NCBI GenBank assembly: GCA_023061495.1
Contig: GCA_023061495.1_3643.1
Length of the DNA: 64,000 nt
Source: Escherichia coli
Lineage (GTDB): Bacteria; Pseudomonadota; Gammaproteobacteria; Enterobacterales; Enterobacteriaceae
Strand: one strand, 5' to 3'
Shown: positions 28,168 to 45,842 of the stretch, piece by piece
How positions within the stretch are numbered: position 1 is the stretch's first letter
Layout of the letters: every line of letters begins with the position of its first letter
Notes under the pieces: generated by a model
Database searches by the model: none
Told to the model about the DNA's origin: nothing
Seen by the model: only the letters and a program-made list of their open reading frames with translations
Position numbers and translations under genes: made by a program

Positions 28168-29451
28168 TTATTCCAGCACCTCCCAAGTGTCTGGGTTAAC
28201 ATTTCGGACGCAGATACCGACAGGGAATTGGTAGTTGTTGTCTTCTGTCCTTGCTTGATATTTGAAGGTGACAAACTTGCCGATCATTTCCTGCATCCTG
28301 TCATAGCTACGCTCCTCGTGCGTACCTTTCATCTTCATTTTAACAACAATACCTTCCTTGTCAACACAGATAAGAACACCTTCATCATTCTTATCTTTCT
28401 CAACGTCAATAACTTTCACCTCAGCATCGTTGAACTTTTTCCATTTCAATGCTTCAGATGTTCGCTGACCGTATTCGTATTTACCACAGAAGTTACGCAT
28501 GATAGTACCTTCATACCCTTCGGACATGAATACACCGACAGATTCTTCGCAATGATCAACTGTGTACGCAAGCTCTGCGTCAACAACCTTGATATGGTCA
28601 AGCATCAGAGTGGTAATGGTATCTTCTACATCCATAAGATCCTTGCAGCGTCCAGATTCTGTTTCTGGATCCCACCACACCTTGTCACTAGGAATATCAA
28701 AAATGTGATACTCTAGATCGTAGCTACAGTACCCACCGTAACGCAAATCATCACGAACAGGCTCAACATCAACAGGAATATCTACCTTGTTGAAGTTTTT
28801 GTATGTTGATAAGCCTGCCTTAATTGCGGCATGACGTCGTTTTTTATCTGCCTCGTAGTCTTTATCGATCTCGGCCTGAATCTCTTCCTGTGTGCGCCAC
28901 CGTTTAGCAAGAGACACTATTTTCTGCAGAGGCAGACCATGAATATAGATCTCTCCGTCGAGCTGTTTAATCCCGGTGGTGAAGTGGAAAGAACGAAGTT
29001 GCTCCAGAAGCTTTCCTTGAATAGGGTAGGACTTATTACCACGGGAAATAAATTTAGGCTCACCATTTTGGAAAACAACAAGTAGACGAAGGCCATCTAA
29101 CTTACGCAAGATCCAGCAAGGTAATTTAAGTGCCTTTCCACGCTTCAGGTAGTCATGCACCAGCATGGGTAAAAGGTCAACACCCTGCTCGCAATCTTCC
29201 ATATTTTCAACATACCCCAGACGGACTTGTTTTTCCCACTTACTGATCGCTTCCAGCTCAGCCTGTTGCTCAGCTGTAGTTTCATTGGCACGACCCACAT
29301 TCTTAGGTGTGCAGATCGTCTCTTTGTATTGCAGTTTACCATCAAGCTTGCCAAACTCTACGATAACCTTATCACCATCCGTGAATACTTTCCACTGTTG
29401 GTAGCTGCCATCTTTGTTCAGTGCGTACAGTGTTGTTTTGATCTGATGCAT
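28168..29451 (-). CDS. ATP-dependent DNA ligase
   Basis: adenylation motif I KLDG (WILRKLDGLRLLVVF), ligase-like size. Confidence 0.8.
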   Translation of the reverse strand: MHQIKTTLYALNKDGSYQQWKVFTDGDKVIVEFGKLDGKLQYKETICTPKNVGRANETTAEQQAELEAISKWEKQVRLGYVENMEDCEQGVDLLPMLVHDYLKRGKALKLPCWILRKLDGLRLLVVFQNGEPKFISRGNKSYPIQGKLLEQLRSFHFTTGIKQLDGEIYIHGLPLQKIVSLAKRWRTQEEIQAEIDKDYEADKKRRHAAIKAGLSTYKNFNKVDIPVDVEPVRDDLRYGGYCSYDLEYHIFDIPSDKVWWDPETESGRCKDLMDVEDTITTLMLDHIKVVDAELAYTVDHCEESVGVFMSEGYEGTIMRNFCGKYEYGQRTSEALKWKKFNDAEVKVIDVEKDKNDEGVLICVDKEGIVVKMKMKGTHEERSYDRMQEMIGKFVTFKYQARTEDNNYQFPVGICVRNVNPDTWEVLE

Positions 29452-31928: not shown

Positions 31929-32860
31929 TGCATATAGTCCTCGTTGTAGAAATAGCAGTCAAGTATCTCACGGCGTTCCTGTTCCAGGAGGCAATTCCAC
32001 ACATCTTCTGTGTAGTTTCTACGAATGAAGTTTACCATGCCGTAAAACTCTTCGTCAACACGCTTAAAGATATCATCATCCCAAATCTTCCAAGCTCTCC
32101 CTCTCATCACGGCCTTCCGTGCCAGATAGTATGGAGACTTGATCTTCAGTTGCAGGTCATAAGGGTAGTAAGGTTTACGGATCATATACCCTTCGCCCCT
32201 TGTTTCTGCAGCCAACTCTTTTGCATGGCTGAACGGAATTTCACGCACAGTGTGAGGACGTTTTGCACCAAGGTATTTGGCAATCCAGTCTAAAGCTGCT
32301 TCTGGCAGCATTATTCCAGAATCATTGTATCGGCAACCGATCAAATAGGCACCATGATCTTCCTGAACAATATGCGGATCTGAAGGATGGCAAATTTCAA
32401 ACATAAATGTCATATTTTCATTTCCCATAACCTTCTTGATAAGATCTAAATTACCACATTGATCCTGGATGGTTTCCTTTGCGAGATTACAATATGGGGA
32501 ATCAAGAGATCCGGTTGTTGAGAATAATAGTTCACCTTTATGAGAGGATACCACGCCAAGGAATCCGTTCTTTTTCTCTACCGCCGTCACAAGCTTATTG
32601 TCAGGCAGGTTGGTGGAGTTTTCTCCCAAGTTAAACACTTTTGTGAAGGGCCATGCCACAACATTTCCTTCATTACCGACAACAATGCCACGGCACTCCA
32701 GTAGACGCGGAGACAAATGCCATAGATTGTTGTAGAATACTTTTCTGGCATATTTGTAGATCTTTAATCCAAGATCTGGATAATACCGACTGGTTACAAG
32801 ACCTTTATCCACTAAATCATCTGCATTAAAATACTTCATCATACATTCCTCGTTTGTCAT
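31925..32860 (-). CDS. RNA ligase-like nucleotidyltransferase
   Basis: covalent nucleotidyltransferase motifs: I KxNG (VEKKNGFLGV), IV EGYMI, V LQLKIK; distinct from the DNA ligase at 28168..29451. Confidence 0.6.
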   Translation of the reverse strand: MTNEECMMKYFNADDLVDKGLVTSRYYPDLGLKIYKYARKVFYNNLWHLSPRLLECRGIVVGNEGNVVAWPFTKVFNLGENSTNLPDNKLVTAVEKKNGFLGVVSSHKGELLFSTTGSLDSPYCNLAKETIQDQCGNLDLIKKVMGNENMTFMFEICHPSDPHIVQEDHGAYLIGCRYNDSGIMLPEAALDWIAKYLGAKRPHTVREIPFSHAKELAAETRGEGYMIRKPYYPYDLQLKIKSPYYLARKAVMRGRAWKIWDDDIFKRVDEEFYGMVNFIRRNYTEDVWNCLLEQERREILDCYFYNEDYMQ

Positions 32861-32903
32861 TTTGTCACTCTATCTTGCCACACAAATAAACCCGTGTCAA
32901 CAC

Positions 32904-32932
32904 TTGAAATGAACAAAATAGTTATGTATAGT
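32904..32932 (+). promoter_or_regulatory. sigma70-like promoter (TTGAAA-N17-TATAGT)
   Basis: -35 at 32904..32909, -10 at 32927..32932, followed by GGAGG RBS and ATG at 32966. Confidence 0.5.
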
Positions 32933-32965
32933 ATACTATCATTAAAATTAAAACGGAGGATTGCT

Positions 32966-33376
32966 ATGTCTAAAATGCTATATATCGTGCGTGGTCTACC
33001 AGGTTCTGGCAAATCAACACTGGCAAATGCACTATCTTTAGAAGGGCTGTATCCACATTTTGAGAACGACATGTTCTGGTACGACGACGATGGAAATTAC
33101 AACTGGGATGCAAGTAAAGTAACACTTGCAGCAAAATGGTGCAAAGATAACGTAGAAGATATGATGCATATGGGATACGACCGTATCGTGGTAAGCAACA
33201 CATTCACAAAAGAAAAACATGTGCAAGAGTATGTTGACATGGCTATCCGTCATGGGTATAGTTACACCGTAATCGTGGTTGAAAACAGGCACGGTAACAA
33301 AAGCATCCATAATGTTCCTGATAAGGTTGTGGATCGTATGGAGCGCGAGCTTAAAAACTGCATTAAACTTAAGTGA
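32966..33376 (+). CDS. polynucleotide 5'-kinase (P-loop, Pnk-like)
   Basis: N-terminal P-loop RGLPGSGKSTLA as in T4 Pnk kinase domain; start moved from ORF-track 32894 to RBS-supported ATG at 32966. Confidence 0.65.
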   Translation: MSKMLYIVRGLPGSGKSTLANALSLEGLYPHFENDMFWYDDDGNYNWDASKVTLAAKWCKDNVEDMMHMGYDRIVVSNTFTKEKHVQEYVDMAIRHGYSYTVIVVENRHGNKSIHNVPDKVVDRMERELKNCIKLK

Positions 33377-33383
33377 GGAATGC

Positions 33384-33938
33384 ATGAAATATTTTGTAAC
33401 AAGCGACACACACTTTCTCCACCAGCGGGTTATGGAGTTTGATTCATGTCAAAAGCACCGATCTCAGTATAATAGCAATCTTGACAGTATGAACGAAGGA
33501 ATCATCGCAGAGTGGAACTCTGTTGTATCACCGGAAGACACTGTGTTTCACTTGGGTGATATTGCATGCACTAAGGATAAGAATATCAACAACTTACTTC
33601 CAGATATTCTAAATATGTTGAACGGACATATTATTCTTGTTAGAGGAAACCATGACACAAGGACTACTGTAAGAATTATGAAAGAGTTCGGTCATGATGT
33701 TGTAGATTATTACGAGCTTAGACACAACAAAAATTTGATCTGCATGAGTCATTACCAATTCGCAACATGGAACCGCAAGCCCCACGGATCAGTTCAACTA
33801 TTCGGTCATGCTCACGGAACCACACAACAGTTGTTTGGCAGGCAGTTTGATGTAGGTTGGGATGTGTGGGGGAGACTGTTACCATTAGAAGAGGCATATA
33901 GCATTGCAATGTGTTTTGATATTGACAGCAGGGAGTAA
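33384..33938 (+). CDS. calcineurin-like metallophosphoesterase
   Basis: motifs SDTHF (D-x-H), HLGDIA (GD), RGNHD (GNHD/E); start at RBS-supported ATG 33384. Confidence 0.7.
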   Translation: MKYFVTSDTHFLHQRVMEFDSCQKHRSQYNSNLDSMNEGIIAEWNSVVSPEDTVFHLGDIACTKDKNINNLLPDILNMLNGHIILVRGNHDTRTTVRIMKEFGHDVVDYYELRHNKNLICMSHYQFATWNRKPHGSVQLFGHAHGTTQQLFGRQFDVGWDVWGRLLPLEEAYSIAMCFDIDSRE

Positions 33939-33985
33939 TCCCTGCTATTTTAAAGAAAATTGCCACACAAGGAGAATGAGGAGAT

Positions 33986-34336
33986 ATGAAAGAGGAGGAT
34001 AAGCTGCCATACCTTAAAGTCCCATTTGGAATACTGTCTATGTCAAAAGTTTTGAATGATACAACTGGAGAGGTTGTTGTTCTTGACTTGTATGACAAGA
34101 TCGTATACTGCTACCTGTACAACTGGTATAAGCTTGGAGGAAATTCACGCTTCACACCCAGCACAAGGAAAATTGCAGCAGATATTGGGATAAAGAAAAC
34201 AAAAGCAGCATCGTGCGTTAAAACTTTAGAATGTGCAGGTGTGGTTGAAACATCCACACAAGGGAGAGGTAAAAGATGCACATTTTCCAAAGTTTTGCCG
34301 CCAGAAGAAGTTATTCGAATGGCAACAACTGGTTAG
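33986..34336 (+). CDS. putative HTH DNA-binding protein
   Basis: helix-turn-helix-like segment TRKIAADIGIKKTKAASCVKTLE; directly upstream of palindrome cluster. Confidence 0.45.
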   Translation: MKEEDKLPYLKVPFGILSMSKVLNDTTGEVVVLDLYDKIVYCYLYNWYKLGGNSRFTPSTRKIAADIGIKKTKAASCVKTLECAGVVETSTQGRGKRCTFSKVLPPEEVIRMATTG

Positions 34337-34422
34337 ACCAGTAAAAACTTAAATATCTGTACTATAAAGGTTCGTATGTTTTATGTTCACTTTAGAGCTG
34401 AGATTATTAACTGCCCGTGAGA

Positions 34423-34571
34423 CGGACACTACTGTCCGCCACGCGGACACTAACTGTCCGCAATACGGACACATAAAGAATATAACTAAAATAACTAAAT
34501 AATAAAAATAAAAGATCTAGTACTTATGGTACTAAAGTACATATACTTAACTTATGTAGAATATACTAGAT
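34423..34571. promoter_or_regulatory. palindrome/iteron-rich regulatory region (operator- or origin-like)
   Basis: CGGACA-N4-TGTCCG (34423..34438), CGGACA-N5-TGTCCG (34444..34460), half-site CGGACAC (34466..34472); tandem ATAACTAAA x2 (34482..34499); inverted repeat ATCTAGTA/TACTAGAT (34515..34522 and 34564..34571) in AT-rich DNA. Confidence 0.45.
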
Positions 34572-34609
34572 CCTAAGTACCATGTTTTAAATTTATTACT
34601 TATTATGGG

Positions 34610-34945
34610 TAGTGTCGGCCCTTCATTGGCACTCGCCTACGGGGGGCGAGATGCCGGGCCTCCATAGTGCACACAATAACAGGAGTGCATACATGCAGGA
34701 CGGTTAACATGTGGGGGGAGCGAAGCGATAGCGCAGGCCAAAGGCCGAGCACTAATGTGGACCACCGACGAAAGCTTGCCAGCGCCGTAAGGAGTCGGTT
34801 GAGAGACTCCCGCGTGAGTTTGGTTAAAGTTTATGTGTGGAAACGGACAAGAAGGCTCCTAAATCTTCCCACAGCTGTGTAAACTCTACCAAGTAAGGCA
34901 ATCGCACCAGTTTGATAGAAAAGCTCGTTACAAGGCGATACAGTG
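34610..34945 (+). ncRNA. candidate structured non-coding RNA (GC-rich block A)
   Basis: about 330 nt, markedly more GC-rich than flanks; extended complementary segments (e.g. CGGCCC...GGCACTCGCC...GGCGAGATGCC...GGGCC); only ORF is Arg-rich and non-genic in character; ends at T-run 34939..34944; strand assumed. Confidence 0.3.
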
Positions 34946-34977
34946 AGTTTTTTCTATAACTTGAAGAGGAGGCAGTT

Positions 34978-35556
34978 ATGAGTTCACTCAAAGATGACCG
35001 CGAAAAGATTGCAAAACGTTATCAGAATGAAGAACAGATGGAGAAAACTTTCAAGTGGAAGCCAGGTTTCCAGCGTAATCATTCTAACGCTCGTGATCGT
35101 AAGCATCCGGATAAGTGGCTAACACCGCCAAATGATGGTATGCAGGTTGGTGATGAGAAGGAGCTATCACCTGGAAAAGATGGCAACTACATTCGCACTA
35201 AGGACGCTGGTCCAAAGGATGACAGCTATCTTGTAGATAAGGTTCTTGATGGTATTGATGTAGATGTTGACACCACACGGAACTTTTTTCTTGGGTGGTA
35301 TCGCACAGGTTTTTTCGACATCAAGGCCATTCGTCGTGTTTGTGATATTAAAAAGTCTGCATATGATGACGACTCGTTACATCGCACCCTGAGGCAATAT
35401 TCAGAAAGATATGGTCATCCGGTTATCACTCTTGACGATGTTCACGAAGTGATGTATCATGCAGAGGTTGTTGCAGGCAGATTTGGTGATGCATATCTTG
35501 ATATCCTTTCTGCAAACGATGAGGTAATGTTGAATAAGATTTACTACGAACGTTGA
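34978..35556 (+). CDS. hypothetical protein
   Basis: 192-aa ORF with GAGGAGG RBS. Confidence 0.5.
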   Translation: MSSLKDDREKIAKRYQNEEQMEKTFKWKPGFQRNHSNARDRKHPDKWLTPPNDGMQVGDEKELSPGKDGNYIRTKDAGPKDDSYLVDKVLDGIDVDVDTTRNFFLGWYRTGFFDIKAIRRVCDIKKSAYDDDSLHRTLRQYSERYGHPVITLDDVHEVMYHAEVVAGRFGDAYLDILSANDEVMLNKIYYER

Positions 35557-35566
35557 GGAGAGCTTA

Positions 35567-35755
35567 ATGAACAATCCAGTAGCAAAGAATTGTAATAAGT
35601 TCAACAAGTCTGCAATTCACACTGACAGGAAAAAGAACTGGTCACCGGACATTGACGAGGAGCTTGAGAATTACTTTGAAGATCTAGTTACCAATGCAGG
35701 TGAGGTTGCGATTAAAGAATATGCAGACAGGAGAGATAAGGCCGGAATCTGTTGA
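35567..35755 (+). CDS. hypothetical small protein
   Basis: 62-aa ORF. Confidence 0.4.
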   Translation: MNNPVAKNCNKFNKSAIHTDRKKNWSPDIDEELENYFEDLVTNAGEVAIKEYADRRDKAGIC

Positions 35756-35780
35756 CAAAAATAATGTTACCTGATAAGAT
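35752..35780 (+). promoter_or_regulatory. sigma70-like promoter (TTGACA-N17-TAAGAT)
   Basis: -35 at 35752..35757, -10 at 35775..35780; a second TG-n-TACAAT extended -10 lies 15 nt downstream. Confidence 0.5.
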
Positions 35781-35832
35781 CTGCAATATGATGTGATACA
35801 ATTTTTAACTTACGAGGTCTACAGGTAATGCT

Positions 35833-36075
35833 ATGTTTAAGGTTAAGCTCGTTTTTCGTTCCATGAATGAGGACTATTTAGAAGATGAAGGTGAATTTCG
35901 TGCACTGGATGATGCAATAGATTTTGCCAACGACTTAGCTTGTATGAATACGGGTTATGGGTTGTGTTGTTGGGATGGTGGTGTTCAGATTGGTGATAGC
36001 AAGATCTTCTACTTCTACCCTGAGCCCGATAACAAACAAATTAAGTATGTTTTATTTATTTGTGCTTTACAATGA
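35833..36075 (+). CDS. hypothetical small protein
   Basis: 80-aa ORF. Confidence 0.45.
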   Translation: MFKVKLVFRSMNEDYLEDEGEFRALDDAIDFANDLACMNTGYGLCCWDGGVQIGDSKIFYFYPEPDNKQIKYVLFICALQ

Positions 36076-36079
36076 GGTT

Positions 36080-36363
36080 GTTTTCGTGTATCATGATGAA
36101 TATCCAATTTAAAGATGAATTTGATGGCTTTATCTCCGGATGCTTTGAAACAGGGTTCGGAGAAGGCTGAGTTCCCCTTAGAGGGCTTGATAGTGCACCA
36201 CACTTAAAATGGTAGGGGCAGCCAGCACATGACGATGTGACCCCAGCCAACCTGTAACAAGGTCGAGCCAAAGCGCGGTAATGGGTCTCTGGTAACCCAC
36301 TTGTTGGGTCTTGTTGGTCCAGGACGCTGGGCAAGTCGCAGGGAATACTACCCTGCGGCGAAC
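36080..36363 (+). ncRNA. candidate structured non-coding RNA (GC-rich block B)
   Basis: about 280 nt GC-rich, hairpin-rich (GCAGGG-aatacta-CCCTGC, CACAT-gacg-ATGTG) with no convincing ORF; lies between a small gene and a consensus promoter; strand assumed. Confidence 0.3.
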
Positions 36364-36392
36364 TTGACAATCAGTATTTGCTGTGATAAAAT
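36364..36392 (+). promoter_or_regulatory. sigma70-like promoter (TTGACA-N17-TAAAAT)
   Basis: -35 at 36364..36369, -10 at 36387..36392; followed by GGAGGAAAC RBS and ATG 36421. Confidence 0.55.
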
Positions 36393-36420
36393 CCACCTAT
36401 CACGTGATAATGGAGGAAAC

Positions 36421-36762
36421 ATGGCGGATACAACTAAAAAGCGTCGCCGTAGAGGCAGACCTCTGAAAGAGGAGTCCAACGCCATTCAGCTAGAGAAGAA
36501 CATTCTTGACATGAAGGAATCTTTTATAGCGATGGTTCCAGAAGCTCATAAAGTTTTAAGAGAGCTGATGTTGGATCCGAAAACCAAACAAAATATTCGT
36601 CAAAGCATTGCAGAGTATGTTCTTGATAAGGCAGACCGAATGCAGGAAGAATATGATGAGATGTTTGGTGAAGAGGAAGAAGAGGTGGTAGTGGAAGAGG
36701 CTGAAAAACCAGCACCTTTTATGCCGTTTACCACAGAAATACAACCTGTTGGCAATAGCTAA
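36421..36762 (+). CDS. hypothetical protein with basic N-terminus (KKRRRRGRP) and acidic C-terminus
   Basis: start moved from ORF-track 36301 to RBS-supported ATG 36421; AT-hook-like RGRP. Confidence 0.5.
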   Translation: MADTTKKRRRRGRPLKEESNAIQLEKNILDMKESFIAMVPEAHKVLRELMLDPKTKQNIRQSIAEYVLDKADRMQEEYDEMFGEEEEEVVVEEAEKPAPFMPFTTEIQPVGNS

Positions 36763-36771
36763 AATATTTTC

Positions 36772-36800
36772 TTGACAAACTTTGCTTAACAGTGTAATAT
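36772..36800 (+). promoter_or_regulatory. sigma70-like promoter upstream of tRNA cluster (TTGACA-N17-TAATAT)
   Basis: -35 at 36772..36777, -10 at 36795..36800. Confidence 0.6.
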
Positions 36801-36858
36801 TGTAAACATGGTCTCCCACCTTTTCTGGCGGCTAAGGTGTAAAAGAAAGCCACCCAGT

Positions 36859-36933
36859 GCCCTGTTAGCTTAGTGGATAAAGCAGCGGCCTTCTAAGCCG
36901 TTGACACTGGTTCGAGTCCAGTACGGGGTGCCA
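36859..36933 (+). tRNA. tRNA-Arg (anticodon TCT)
   Basis: hand-folded cloverleaf: acceptor GCCCTGT/ACGGGGT, anticodon loop CTTCTAA, T-arm ACTGG-TTCGAGT-CCAGT, encoded CCA. Confidence 0.75.
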
Positions 36934-37327: not shown

Positions 37328-37424
37328 GCTGGGTAAGCCCTTTGGCAAGGGCGAGGATTTTTAATCCTGAAAATAGACGAGGTAGTCGTTGAATACATAG
37401 GTGGTTCGATTCCATCACCTAGCA
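37328..37424 (+). tRNA. atypical tRNA-like gene; anticodon loop reads UUUUUAA (UUU, Lys-like) but about 30 nt lie between anticodon arm and T-arm
   Basis: acceptor GCTGGGT/ACCTAGC (one G-U), D-arm GCCC/GGGC, canonical T-arm GGTGG-TTCGATT-CCATC; fold not fully resolved by hand; no encoded CCA. Confidence 0.4.
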
Positions 37425-37432
37425 CCTTTTTT

Positions 37433-43903: not shown

Positions 43904-44914
43904 ATGATTACTCGTAAAGATGAATTTGGCATTGTTGATTTAGGTGCTACTCTGGACCTTGTTCCGCGCCAATTCCGACTGATCACTGGTATGGATCTGT
44001 TCGAAACCCGTCTCGGCACCTCAACAATTGCTCAGATCGAGCGTGTTGATGAAGTTGTAACCGACATTCCGGCACGCCGTCGTGGCGGTGAGCGTAACTA
44101 CGTTGGTAGTGAACGTGCTCAGGTTAAAAACCTGAACATCCCGTTCTTCCCTCTGGACAAAGGCATCACTGCCGCAGATGTTCAGAACTTCCGTCGTTAC
44201 TTCACCCCTGATGCTCCGAAAACTGTTCAGGATGTAGTAACCCGCGTTGTTCGCCGTATCCGTGTTTCTCATGAAGCACTGCGTGAGAAAGCGCTGTTCC
44301 AGGCTATTCTGGGTAAATCCTATGCACCTGGTGACGCTACCTGTCAGTATGATTACTACACTCTGTGGGATGTGTCTCAGAAGTCTGTTGAGATTGACCC
44401 TGCAAAAGCAGATCAGGATCCTATGGAGGTTCTGGAAGAAGCTCGTCTGCACATCGCACTGCAAGCTGGCGATAACGCAGCTGGCTATCGTATTGTAGCT
44501 CTGTGCTCACCAGAGTTCTTCAGCGCTATTACCCATCACCCGCTGGTAGAACTGGCATACACCTATTACGGCTCTGCTCAGGAACCTCTGCGTCGCCGTC
44601 TGGGTGCTGGCGGTCAAGACAGCGTATACCGTGTGTTTGAACATAAAGGTATCACCTTTATCGAAGATATCTCTGGCAATATTCCTAAGAAAGAGGCTCG
44701 CATTCTGCCGATGGGTATTGATCAGATGTTCCAGCTGCACTTTGCTCCGGCAGACGATGTTAACGAAGCAAACACTCCAGCACAGGAACTGTACATGTGG
44801 TACAAACACTCTGCATACCTGCGTGAAGAGAAGATTGAATCTGAAACTTCTATGCTGGCAGTTAACACCCGTCCAGAGTTGGTTGTTAAAGTAACTCTGA
44901 AAAACGGTGGCTAA
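43904..44914 (+). CDS. major capsid protein (lambda gpE-like)
   Basis: 336 aa after scaffold and decoration genes; strongly host-optimal codons (CTG, CGT, GGT, AAA); strong terminator immediately downstream. Confidence 0.65.
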   Translation: MITRKDEFGIVDLGATLDLVPRQFRLITGMDLFETRLGTSTIAQIERVDEVVTDIPARRRGGERNYVGSERAQVKNLNIPFFPLDKGITAADVQNFRRYFTPDAPKTVQDVVTRVVRRIRVSHEALREKALFQAILGKSYAPGDATCQYDYYTLWDVSQKSVEIDPAKADQDPMEVLEEARLHIALQAGDNAAGYRIVALCSPEFFSAITHHPLVELAYTYYGSAQEPLRRRLGAGGQDSVYRVFEHKGITFIEDISGNIPKKEARILPMGIDQMFQLHFAPADDVNEANTPAQELYMWYKHSAYLREEKIESETSMLAVNTRPELVVKVTLKNGG

Positions 44915-44996: not shown

Positions 44997-45842
44997 GTGA
45001 AGAGAGCCGTATATCCAGTTGAGTATGATCCTCTATTAAGAGTTTTCAACAATCAGTTAAGTTTCTATCAATTTTTAGCACAATATAACCCAGAAATCAA
45101 TGTTGGTTTATCAGCCTTGCTACCACCAACAGAATTCGTTATTGGCAGTGTTCACTATCCATGCAGAACTATTGTAGACTTCTTCGAGAAGATTGCAAAA
45201 CATACAGGCCTGCCAATTGATACTGGTATTTCAACCATCCGTATGGGTGTTATTCTTCTGTTCTTCACAGAGAACCTTGATGAAAGCACTTTAACACTGC
45301 AAAGCGGAGATGTCAATATCACACTCACCCCGTCAGTGTTTAAAGAGGTAGATGCTGCTTTCAAAGTTTCCGTGGCAGAGGGACATCTGTGGGACCCTGT
45401 AGGGATGCCTAAAAAAGTGACCATAAACGATGAGCAATGCAGCATTGTTTATGAAGAAGATACCCAAACTTTCACCATCGAATGGCCTAAGAAACGCTCT
45501 CAGGTTGTAAATCTTGGGCTGACCTCTACGATAGCTCCACCGCCTCAACCAGAGCCGGAGCCGCCTGTAGGTCCTACTGAACCTGGTGGTGGTGAAGAAT
45601 CCCAAGGTCCGACTGTACCTGAGGGAGGCACTGAGCAGGATCCTGAACAGACACAAGAATCAAGATCTTCTCGCAGTGATGTTGATGCCCTACTACAGCA
45701 GGCCGCAGCTCTTAACAACGAAGATGACAAAAGTGGTTCAAAAGATGCACTCCAAACCTTCGCCAAAGAGCACGGTGTTACCTTAAGTAAGGCAAAAACT
45801 TTCCAAAATATGATGAAAGATTTTGAGGCTGCACTGGCATAA
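44997..45842 (+). CDS. hypothetical structural protein with Pro/Glu-rich C-terminal region
   Basis: GTG start with AGGAG RBS; low-complexity PPPQPEPEPP segment. Confidence 0.45.
   Translation: MKRAVYPVEYDPLLRVFNNQLSFYQFLAQYNPEINVGLSALLPPTEFVIGSVHYPCRTIVDFFEKIAKHTGLPIDTGISTIRMGVILLFFTENLDESTLTLQSGDVNITLTPSVFKEVDAAFKVSVAEGHLWDPVGMPKKVTINDEQCSIVYEEDTQTFTIEWPKKRSQVVNLGLTSTIAPPPQPEPEPPVGPTEPGGGEESQGPTVPEGGTEQDPEQTQESRSSRSDVDALLQQAAALNNEDDKSGSKDALQTFAKEHGVTLSKAKTFQNMMKDFEAALA

Follow-up and report, generated by a model that had tools for sequence, protein, structure and literature searches.

The window analysed here, a 64,000-nucleotide stretch of an Escherichia coli assembly (contig GCA_023061495.1_3643.1), carries two GC-rich blocks upstream of a tRNA island, which are best bounded at 34612–34958 (block A) and 36171–36363 (the non-coding part of block B). 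The window is from a Vequintavirus (rV5/FV3-like) phage, as positions 34300–36900 showed 97% identity to Escherichia phage FV3 and 94–96% identity to more than 100 other rV5-like phages. We consider it probable that both blocks are non-coding and function through the fold of a plus-strand transcript, block B being a phage homologue of SroH (Rfam RF00372), a host small RNA (sRNA) that has been an orphan since 2003. The structured non-coding RNA reading was supported strongly for block B and moderately for block A. What is new is that virulent enterobacterial phages, T4 included, carry the core of SroH, which is unannotated there; literature searches on SroH and phages, on RNA elements at denV/vs.8 of T4, and on the core sequence found nothing relevant, and no paper connecting SroH with phages was retrieved.

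An SroH-like core in block B

The core (36215–36286, plus strand), delineated by covariation and a phage-only covariance model, consists of a hairpin followed by a three-way junction. The hairpin P0 (36215–18/36241–44 in the window, with an inner hairpin at 36226–36239) is a 5-bp stem around a variable insert that usually starts with CA. The junction is made of P1 (36246–48/36284–86; 3–5 bp), J12 (AA or UA), P2 (36250–53/36260–63; ACCU/AGGU with the loop GUARNA), J23 (UCRA), P3 (36267–69/36273–76; GCC-MAA-G-Y-GC), and J31 (GGUAAUG), and its invariant junction and loop bases are AA, UCRA, GGUAAUG, GUARNA, and MAA. A model scan found one copy of the core in the window; a second, weak match at 28577–28624 (plus strand; 14.3 bits, E ~0.06) had several broken pairs and is probably due to chance.

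Pairing was evaluated for 15 pairs in 30 distinct sequences (450 pair cells), with the variable P0 insert spliced out. Standard pairs accounted for 95.8% of the cells of P0, P1, P2, and P3, against 80.7% in shuffles and 15–45% when one partner was slid, and 9 of the 15 pairs changed on both sides, with double changes in 70 cells. P0 occurred as GGGG/CCCC, GGAAC/GUUCC, GGGAA/UUCCC, GGGAG/CUCCC, AAAGG/CCUUU, AAAGC/GCUUU, GAGUG/CACUC, GAAUG/CAUUC, and GAGGG/CCCUC, and P1 as GCC/GGU, GCC/GGC, ACC/GGU, ACU/AGU, GGC/GCU, GCG/CGU, and CUGG/CCAG, while the middle pair of P3 was flipped from C-G to G-C both in L006, a divergent Vequintavirus contig, and in sroH. The outer pair of P1 was G-U in 11 sequences and would be a C-A mismatch on the opposite strand, so the functional strand is the plus strand, on which all flanking genes are also encoded. 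Two other pairings were discarded: an early register of P1 (CCCA/UGGG) overlapped P0 and fitted the lineages less well than GCC/GGU, and the GGCUUG/CGAGCC pairing proposed by RNAalifold was absent from the T4-like phages and conflicted with the compensation in P3.

An earlier reading of the window from its letters alone (the sequence-only reading) had matched neither block to a known RNA family, which holds for block A and needs amending for block B, whose relationship to SroH lies below the Rfam threshold. When the whole window and each block by itself were scanned with the Rfam models, at the gathering scores and with E up to 10, only tRNAs passed, and the sole pointer was a weak sroH match in block B. 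No relevant match to tmRNA, RNase P RNA, group I/II introns, riboswitches, or other Rfam families was obtained in either block at E up to 10, and ARAGORN predicted no tmRNA or tRNA inside either. In a scan of the 76 nt around the core, sroH scored 8.2 bits (E = 2.5; 36258–36300) and did not reach the gathering score of 80.

The L006 copy (GGTCAAGGCGAAGTCCGGTAATGG) was almost identical to the sroH consensus and matched a chromosomal site in 3740 of the 5426 complete E. coli genomes. This site scored 201 bits as sroH and lies between thiH and a convergent gene for a hypothetical protein, which we take to be yjaZ in K-12 nomenclature. Conversely, a covariance model (R2) built from 25 phage sequences only found E. 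coli sroH with 45.6 bits (rough E of 3e-13) and all ten pairs kept, the P2 of SroH, which is 4 bp longer, being treated in the alignment as a loop insertion. SroH also has P0 (GGAUG/CAUCC around CAGCAGA and a hairpin with a GAAA loop) and P1 (CGC/GCG). SroH and the window have almost the same junction sequences (UCAAGGCAAAGUCCGGUAAUGG in sroH and UCGAGCCAAAGCGCGGUAAUGG in the window), L006 deviates by one base, and a four-way alignment was colinear from P0 to the terminal ACCCAC… hairpin (ACCCACC-UUAA-GGUGGGUUUUGUU in SroH and ACCCA-CUUGU-UGGGUCUUGUU in the window). The host range of SroH and that of the phages are likewise the same. The two RNAs differ in the 5' 30 nt and in the length of P2, and SroH has an extra hairpin and then a proper U-tract terminator; moreover, SroH occupies the chromosomal thiH–yjaZ locus, whereas the phage copy is located among small early genes upstream of tRNAs. 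As judged from these alignments, the core of block B is homologous to the middle of SroH, and the most apt description of block B is that of an SroH-family variant in phages: the core and the order of the parts are shared, but the Rfam score is not reached and both ends differ.

Distribution of the core among phages

A sensitive blastn search of block B against 50,697 phage records (T4 included) matched 898 records. The rV5-like phages (119 records) were matched at full coverage, and the remaining matches comprised ~40–48 nt only (36239–36286 in the window) at 85–93% identity. In T4 and many of the Tevenvirinae, the core is flanked by denV (or an internal-protein gene) on one side and vs.8 on the other. 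Klebsiella phage Pylas, which is N4-like, has it in an unannotated 1-kb stretch that follows its tRNA array, and the 44-kb phage EcoPhCCP1 has it after the endolysin gene. A pattern scan of IMG/VR found the 31-nt core in roughly 46-kb contigs, 250–400 nt upstream of tRNA genes; contigs with the core at this distance were L021, L025, L031, L034, and L027. The last of these (117 kb), from the same scan, contained a homologue of the complete block B RNA, diverged but syntenic, which precedes the same 113-aa gene and tRNA-Arg/Tyr as in the window. The phage-type core pattern had no matches in 185,579 bacterial species genomes, as would be expected, since the host version has a P2 of another length and a different P3. 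The T4 reading frame across the core is closed by stop codons in the window copy, so the conservation of the core is not of the protein-coding kind.

Several further observations concern these other carriers. The annotated start of T4 vs.8 (ATGAGGG…) is located inside P0 of the SroH-like element (L001 2491–2612; NC_000866 ~64,790–64,912, minus strand), and the T4 relatives conserve the RNA fold at this position, with some of them annotated from a later ATGA(G/A)A…; the first ~40 codons of T4 vs.8 are probably mis-called. After the SroH-like element, T4-like phages have a further conserved hairpin, GCCA-MGGAA-UGGC. In Pylas (L013 1272–2290), the SroH-like element is enclosed by a longer GUUGUGAC…GUCACAAC stem, and in the same stretch repeated CCGTTGTGG words lie on either side of a tRNA-like unit (AAGAGCA … GCGGTTCGATTCCGC … TGCTCTT) that is absent from the predictions.

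The sequence-only reading had drawn an analogy with the stable RNAs inside the T4 tRNA region; on this view, the blocks would be RNAs of the T4 species 1/2 type (rnaC, rnaD), co-transcribed and processed with the tRNA cluster. These are phage RNAs of unknown function tied to a tRNA region (PMC9697503), and the position of block B, 500 nt upstream of tRNA-Arg on the same strand, resembles theirs, as do the SroH-like copies near tRNA genes in the five contigs above and at the Pylas array. However, blastn matched neither block to the T4 tRNA region, and there was no sequence similarity to species 1/2; in T4, only the 44-nt core was matched, which is located between denV and vs.8 at a distance of several kb from the tRNA cluster. 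Species 1/2 are late RNAs within the cluster, whereas the blocks lie outside it among sigma-70-type promoters, with two consensus promoters and a protein gene between block B and the tRNAs and with block A 1.9 kb off and separated by three genes. We therefore regard this analogy as very improbable. GOLLD and ROOL are likewise structured phage or prophage non-coding RNAs of unknown function that often lie beside tRNA genes. With 500–800 nt, Rfam families of their own, and other hosts and architectures (structures in 10.1101/2024.12.08.627333), they differ from the two blocks, which have no such Rfam match.

Layout and predicted expression of the block B RNA

Upstream of the core, block B begins with an invariant 5' segment (36171–36214, plus strand; …AGAGGGCUUGAUAGUGCACCACACUUAAAAUGGUA) that was nearly identical even in the distant contig L027. 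Downstream of the core, the hairpin ACCCA-CUUGU-UGGGU followed by CUUGUUGG (36295–36318, plus strand) was terminator-like in a scan and is colinear with the SroH terminator, although the hairpin proper (36295–36309) has no clean U-tract. Two further hairpins predicted by RNAalifold, CCAG-GACG-CUGG and CGCAGGG-AAUACUA-CCCUGCG (36319–36357, plus strand), abut the next promoter; the former covaries with L027, and the latter is missing from it. The 3' limit is the near-consensus sigma-70 promoter of the next gene (36364–36392, plus strand; TTGACA-N17-TAAAAT, 11/12 with TG), at which the sequence-only reading had already placed the end of the block. Within Vequintavirus, conservation was higher in block B than in the genes beside it; this applied even to L006, where identity in the adjacent 192-aa protein is only 82%.

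The region just upstream, formerly counted in block B, was the part that did not prove non-coding. It contains a micro-ORF (open reading frame) of 25 aa (36093–36170, plus strand; MMNIQFKDEFDGFISGCFETGFGEG), which the sequence-only reading had not listed. Unlike the rest of block B, it behaved like protein-coding sequence: seven of the eight substitutions among relatives were synonymous third-position changes, and a 36-aa overlapping reading in the same frame (36060–36167) matched phrog_6828 (E = 3.5e-9). Its GC content is 38.5%. In L027, it is cut to 8 codons, with a promoter in place of its 3' half. The segment is probably a real micro-gene, and the non-coding block B is therefore taken as 36171–36363.

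The L027 promoter (TTGACA-17-TATACT, 11/12 with TG) stops 7 nt short of the conserved RNA, and there is another promoter after the RNA, an arrangement that speaks for an independent RNA, roughly 170 nt long, in this contig. The nearest candidate promoter in the window (TTTACA-17-TATCAT, 10/12; 36066–36094) would start transcription after the ATG of the micro-ORF; co-transcription from the promoter at 35752, with the RNA ended or processed near the hairpin at 36295–36318, is therefore the more likely arrangement from the promoter positions. Targets complementary to the block B RNA inside the window amounted to chance 11-mers only.

These contexts bear on whether the core could act in cis, as a riboswitch-like aptamer, a protein-binding operator, or an mRNA stabiliser, instead of as a trans-acting sRNA. 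A compact junction that combines invariant bases with covarying stems is what aptamers typically show, the core has no strong promoter directly before it in the window, and in the T4-like phages the core comes directly after denV, 25–90 nt before the vs.8 frame, within a polycistronic mRNA and with no terminator of its own. On the other hand, the genes downstream are wholly different between lineages (vs.8, tRNAs, the 113-aa protein, or nothing), a strong promoter separates the RNA from the next gene in both the window and L027, and no expression platform, such as an alternative terminator or anti-Shine–Dalgarno pairing, was evident. E. coli SroH itself is a stand-alone primary transcript facing a convergent gene (PMC5389530). 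A cis-regulatory role for the core thus seems unlikely overall.

Composition and coding status of the two blocks

The GC content of the window is 43.1% (200-nt windows: mean 0.431, standard deviation 0.042), and the 200-nt scan bore out the GC excess reported by the sequence-only reading, with the two blocks as the GC-richest stretches of the 64 kb. Block A contains the top 200-nt window (0.59), with 58.4% GC at 34612–34830, and the non-coding part of block B has 56%. The next-highest windows (~55%) are at about 44420–44640 and 45500–45720.

Variable columns among eight relatives were counted by codon position. The counts were 22/27/29 for block A and 9/13/9 for 36171–36363, with no third-position bias, and 4/1/24, 33/19/86, and 4/2/24 for the flanking genes, with a strong one. 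Indels of 1 nt among relatives occurred in block A and in 36171–36363, and the ORFs named in the sequence-only reading had no Pfam or PHROG match, in line with its judgement that they are non-genic. By codon phase, indels, and protein families alike, block A and the RNA part of block B therefore did not behave as protein-coding sequence; spurious ORFs are annotated across the blocks in some records.

The description of the blocks as hairpin-dense fared differently by the two measures used. By folding energy, it was not upheld: on the plus strand, z was −0.36 for block A (37 of 100 shuffles folded at least as well) and −1.90 for block B (10 of 200), and on the other strand −1.82 and −1.37, respectively. 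By comparison with relatives it was, since compensatory pairs were found in both blocks, and the absence of codon phase, the compensatory pairs, and G-U pairs that form only on the plus strand together agree with structured non-coding RNA whose fold is conserved across related phages. Decayed genes or inert spacer from a GC-richer source could account for a GC content foreign to the phage and for the spurious ORFs; yet block B is better conserved than its neighbouring genes, both blocks have compensatory changes, and the core is kept across unrelated phage families and the host, and we find this explanation hardly credible.

Block A: structure and distribution

Block A (34612–34958, plus strand) is a conserved structured non-coding element with no Rfam match. 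Domain 1 is a 15-bp bulged hairpin (34617–34660, plus strand; GGCCC / GGCA / CUCGCC ... GGCGAG-A-UGCC / GGGCC), in which all cells were paired and two pairs were changed from G-C to U-A in a lineage of plasmids described below. A second stem, S1 (34763–34798, plus strand; ACCGAC/GUCGGU), closes an invariant 24-nt loop (GAAAGCUUGCCAGCGCCGUAAGGA). Three of its six pairs were compensated in the plasmids (GCUGCC/GGCAGC), and an A-U pair was replaced by G-U in L006 and the contig L009, which pairs only on the plus strand. The 21 pairs of these two domains, which are shared with the plasmids, were standard in all five distinct sequences, and in five of them both partners differed between the phage lineage and the plasmid lineage, with none compensated in slid controls. 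A pseudoknot between GGAG in the S1 loop and CUCC at 34806–34809 is possible, as noticed by eye.

The rest of block A follows an RNAalifold model, with many one-sided transitions that preserve pairing and little true covariation. It includes a long imperfect hairpin in a variable region (34818–34894, plus strand), a consensus with weak support, in which many of the one-sided transitions keep pairing through G-U. An 18-nt hairpin of block A is deleted in some relatives. At the 3' end, a terminal hairpin of an A-tract and a U-tract (34915–34957, plus strand), nearly invariant in all relatives, includes the T-run at which the block had been said to end, here identified as T6 at 34946–34951. The terminator scan made no call at this end, where the U-run is paired to the A-tract in a 15-bp AU-rich stem; located ~20 nt before the ribosome-binding site and ATG of gene 34978, the hairpin is, from its sequence, a possible weak terminator or attenuator. 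No sigma-70-like promoter was found at 33951–35340 on the plus strand, and block A is therefore probably part of a transcript that runs into gene 34978. A second SroH-like motif in block A, suspected from the resemblance of GCCAGCGCCGUAAGG to GCCAAAGCGCGGUAAUGG, was rejected, as the model matched neither block A nor the plasmids.

Block A was searched by blastn against phages, E. coli genomes, and plasmids and by pattern scans of viral, genome, and metagenome collections. It was present in all Vequintavirus relatives (119 records, 88–97% identity), including L006. Beyond Vequintavirus, it was found only in the non-coding region of 13–14-kb circular E. coli 'plasmids' (7 of 5426 genomes). These searches yielded no further lineage, the extra hits being chance matches in GC-rich coding DNA, and the neighbouring 192-aa protein failed as a route to other Vequintavirinae genera because it is genus-restricted. 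Genes of these plasmids code for major capsid, tape measure, and baseplate proteins and for helix-turn-helix (HTH) regulators, and the plasmids may be phage satellites. The family (L056, NZ_CP020521.1, 13,689 bp; L005; and L057–L059) is non-mobilizable, with one member a 39.6-kb trimer, and has no typed replicon and a non-coding region of more than 2 kb. This region is a shuffled array of differing hairpin modules separated by UGUGUGGG-like words; AUGUGG words recur in block A too. Further compensation was observed between plasmids (GUGCC-UAC-GGCAC and GUGCU-UAC-AGCAC).

Immediately upstream of block A is a module that looks, from its sequence, like an origin or an operator array (34408–34605). 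Three 21–22-nt direct repeats (34408–34472; four in most relatives), each a palindrome of the form TGTCCG-N5-CGGACA, are followed by a 130-nt AT-rich stretch (34476–34605; 19% GC) with long AT-rich inverted repeats; the CGGACA half-site recurs inside block A at 34840–34849. Block A could therefore be conceived as part of a replication origin or operator acting at the DNA level, either through hairpins of single-stranded DNA for priming or the loading of a helicase, or as a site that the 13-kb plasmids have copied to gain use of the phage machinery. The 116-aa HTH_36 protein encoded upstream (33986–34336) matched HTH_36 and PHROG 12838 'replication initiation protein', and the repeats and the 19% GC stretch directly precede block A. 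Moreover, its sole other carriers are small phage-like plasmids without a typed replicon, and hairpins of single-stranded DNA would also be kept by compensatory changes.

Iteron-type origins with a GC-rich flank, such as RK2 oriV and lambda ori, combine an initiator gene, repeated sites, an AT-rich stretch, and a GC-rich block in this same order. Block A differs from them: its 350 nt include compensated hairpins, its conservation does not depend on the repeats, and it also occurs in plasmids in another context. L006 keeps block A while its repeats and AT-rich part are almost entirely different, the element is not beside an AT-rich stretch in the plasmids, whose shuffled array of hairpin modules is unlike an origin, and the replacement of A-U by G-U in S1 points to one strand, that of transcription. 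A DNA-level role for block A is quite unlikely in our estimation, although the initiator-like gene, the repeats, and the AT-rich stretch oblige us to take it seriously, and an RNA element remains the preferred reading.

Neighbouring genes

Gene order was taken from annotated relatives and family scans. Directly upstream of the HTH_36 gene, a set of RNA-repair genes (~32300–33940) comprises an RnlA-like RNA ligase (named in relatives; minus strand), a P-loop polynucleotide kinase-like protein (AAA_33/Zeta-toxin-like; 32963–33373), and a metallophosphoesterase (33381–33935). Genes of 192, 62, and 80 aa lie between the two blocks, the 113-aa gene lies between block B and the tRNA genes, and seven tRNA genes start at 36859. 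The RNA-repair set together with the tRNA island suggests a neighbourhood of counter-defence against tRNA damage. A tRNA-like gene at 37328–37426 (plus strand) was given no determinate type by ARAGORN (4-base anticodon, atcc) and scored 33.7 bits with the Rfam tRNA model; with its long extra arm and U-rich anticodon loop, it could be a suppressor-type or degenerate tRNA. Eighteen records (MG0656xx) named 'Campylobacter phage' (host Campylobacter jejuni) showed 92–95% identity to this rV5-like region and are likely contamination or mislabelled deposited genomes.

Proposed roles of the two RNAs

In the scheme that we propose, host RNA polymerase would transcribe the block B RNA early, together with the upstream small genes in the window and from its own promoter in L027. 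The RNA would fold into the covarying P0, the compact P1–P2–P3 three-way junction, and a terminator-like hairpin colinear with the SroH terminator. The junction would then serve as a binding platform for the same host partner, either a protein or a ligand, that recognises SroH, and the phage RNA would mimic or out-compete the host RNA. T4, the rV5-like phages, and the N4-like phage retain only the core, which marks it as the functional unit. Block A would most likely belong to the transcript that runs into the 34978–35755 genes, as a long structured leader or as an intergenic segment; processing may yield a stable fragment from it, or its terminal U-tract hairpin may attenuate read-through.

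Phage RNAs related to host or defence RNAs have precedents. AgvB and AsxR of enterohaemorrhagic E. coli prophages are anti-sRNAs or sRNA mimics. Pseudo-ToxI of ΦTE is a case of phage RNA mimicry against a defence RNA (PMC3475682). These act by sRNA base-pairing or repeat-antitoxin mimicry, respectively, whereas the part that block B shares with SroH is a folded junction and not a seed or tandem repeat, and its interference is putative. SroH has been described as a primary transcript of unknown function that is polyadenylated and bound by PNPase, and its deletion confers sensitivity to envelope stress (PMC5389530, PMC13572404, PMC6172242).

Several points weigh against these proposals. No mechanism of SroH is known, so that its mimicry by the phage is something we infer (PMC5389530, PMC13572404). 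The window copy scored only 8.2 bits against a gathering score of 80, and the homology covers only part of the 161-nt SroH. The pairing score of P0 is inflated, as its 5' strand was placed partly by complementarity, and the folding energies of both blocks are unexceptional. In the T4-like phages, the core is inside an mRNA just upstream of vs.8, where a cis role fits at least as well as a trans role. For block A, the covariation comes from two lineages only, and the adjoining origin-like module would also suit a role at the DNA level.

More speculatively, the SroH-type junction could be a dedicated recognition module for one host factor that has been captured by at least three virulent phage families, including T4, an idea that we hold as doubtful but worth stating. 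Such a factor, which the phage would titrate or sense, could be a protein that degrades or modifies RNA, a defence component that senses RNA, or a small molecule. If true, this would provide the first mechanism for SroH and an RNA-based device for host takeover or anti-defence in the best-studied phage. The ~900 independently evolving phage copies define the 70-nt hairpin and junction as the part of SroH that matters, and they provide both the covariation for a structure model and a testable context, namely infection, including that by T4 with its easy genetics. They also indicate that well-annotated phages still hide conserved RNA elements beneath mis-called ORFs, as exemplified by the start of T4 vs.8. 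Block A, in turn, may be a cis element common to rV5-like phages and the 13-kb plasmids because the latter are satellites of such phages; it connects a lytic myovirus with very small phage-like plasmids and may hint at a helper–satellite or replication relationship between them.

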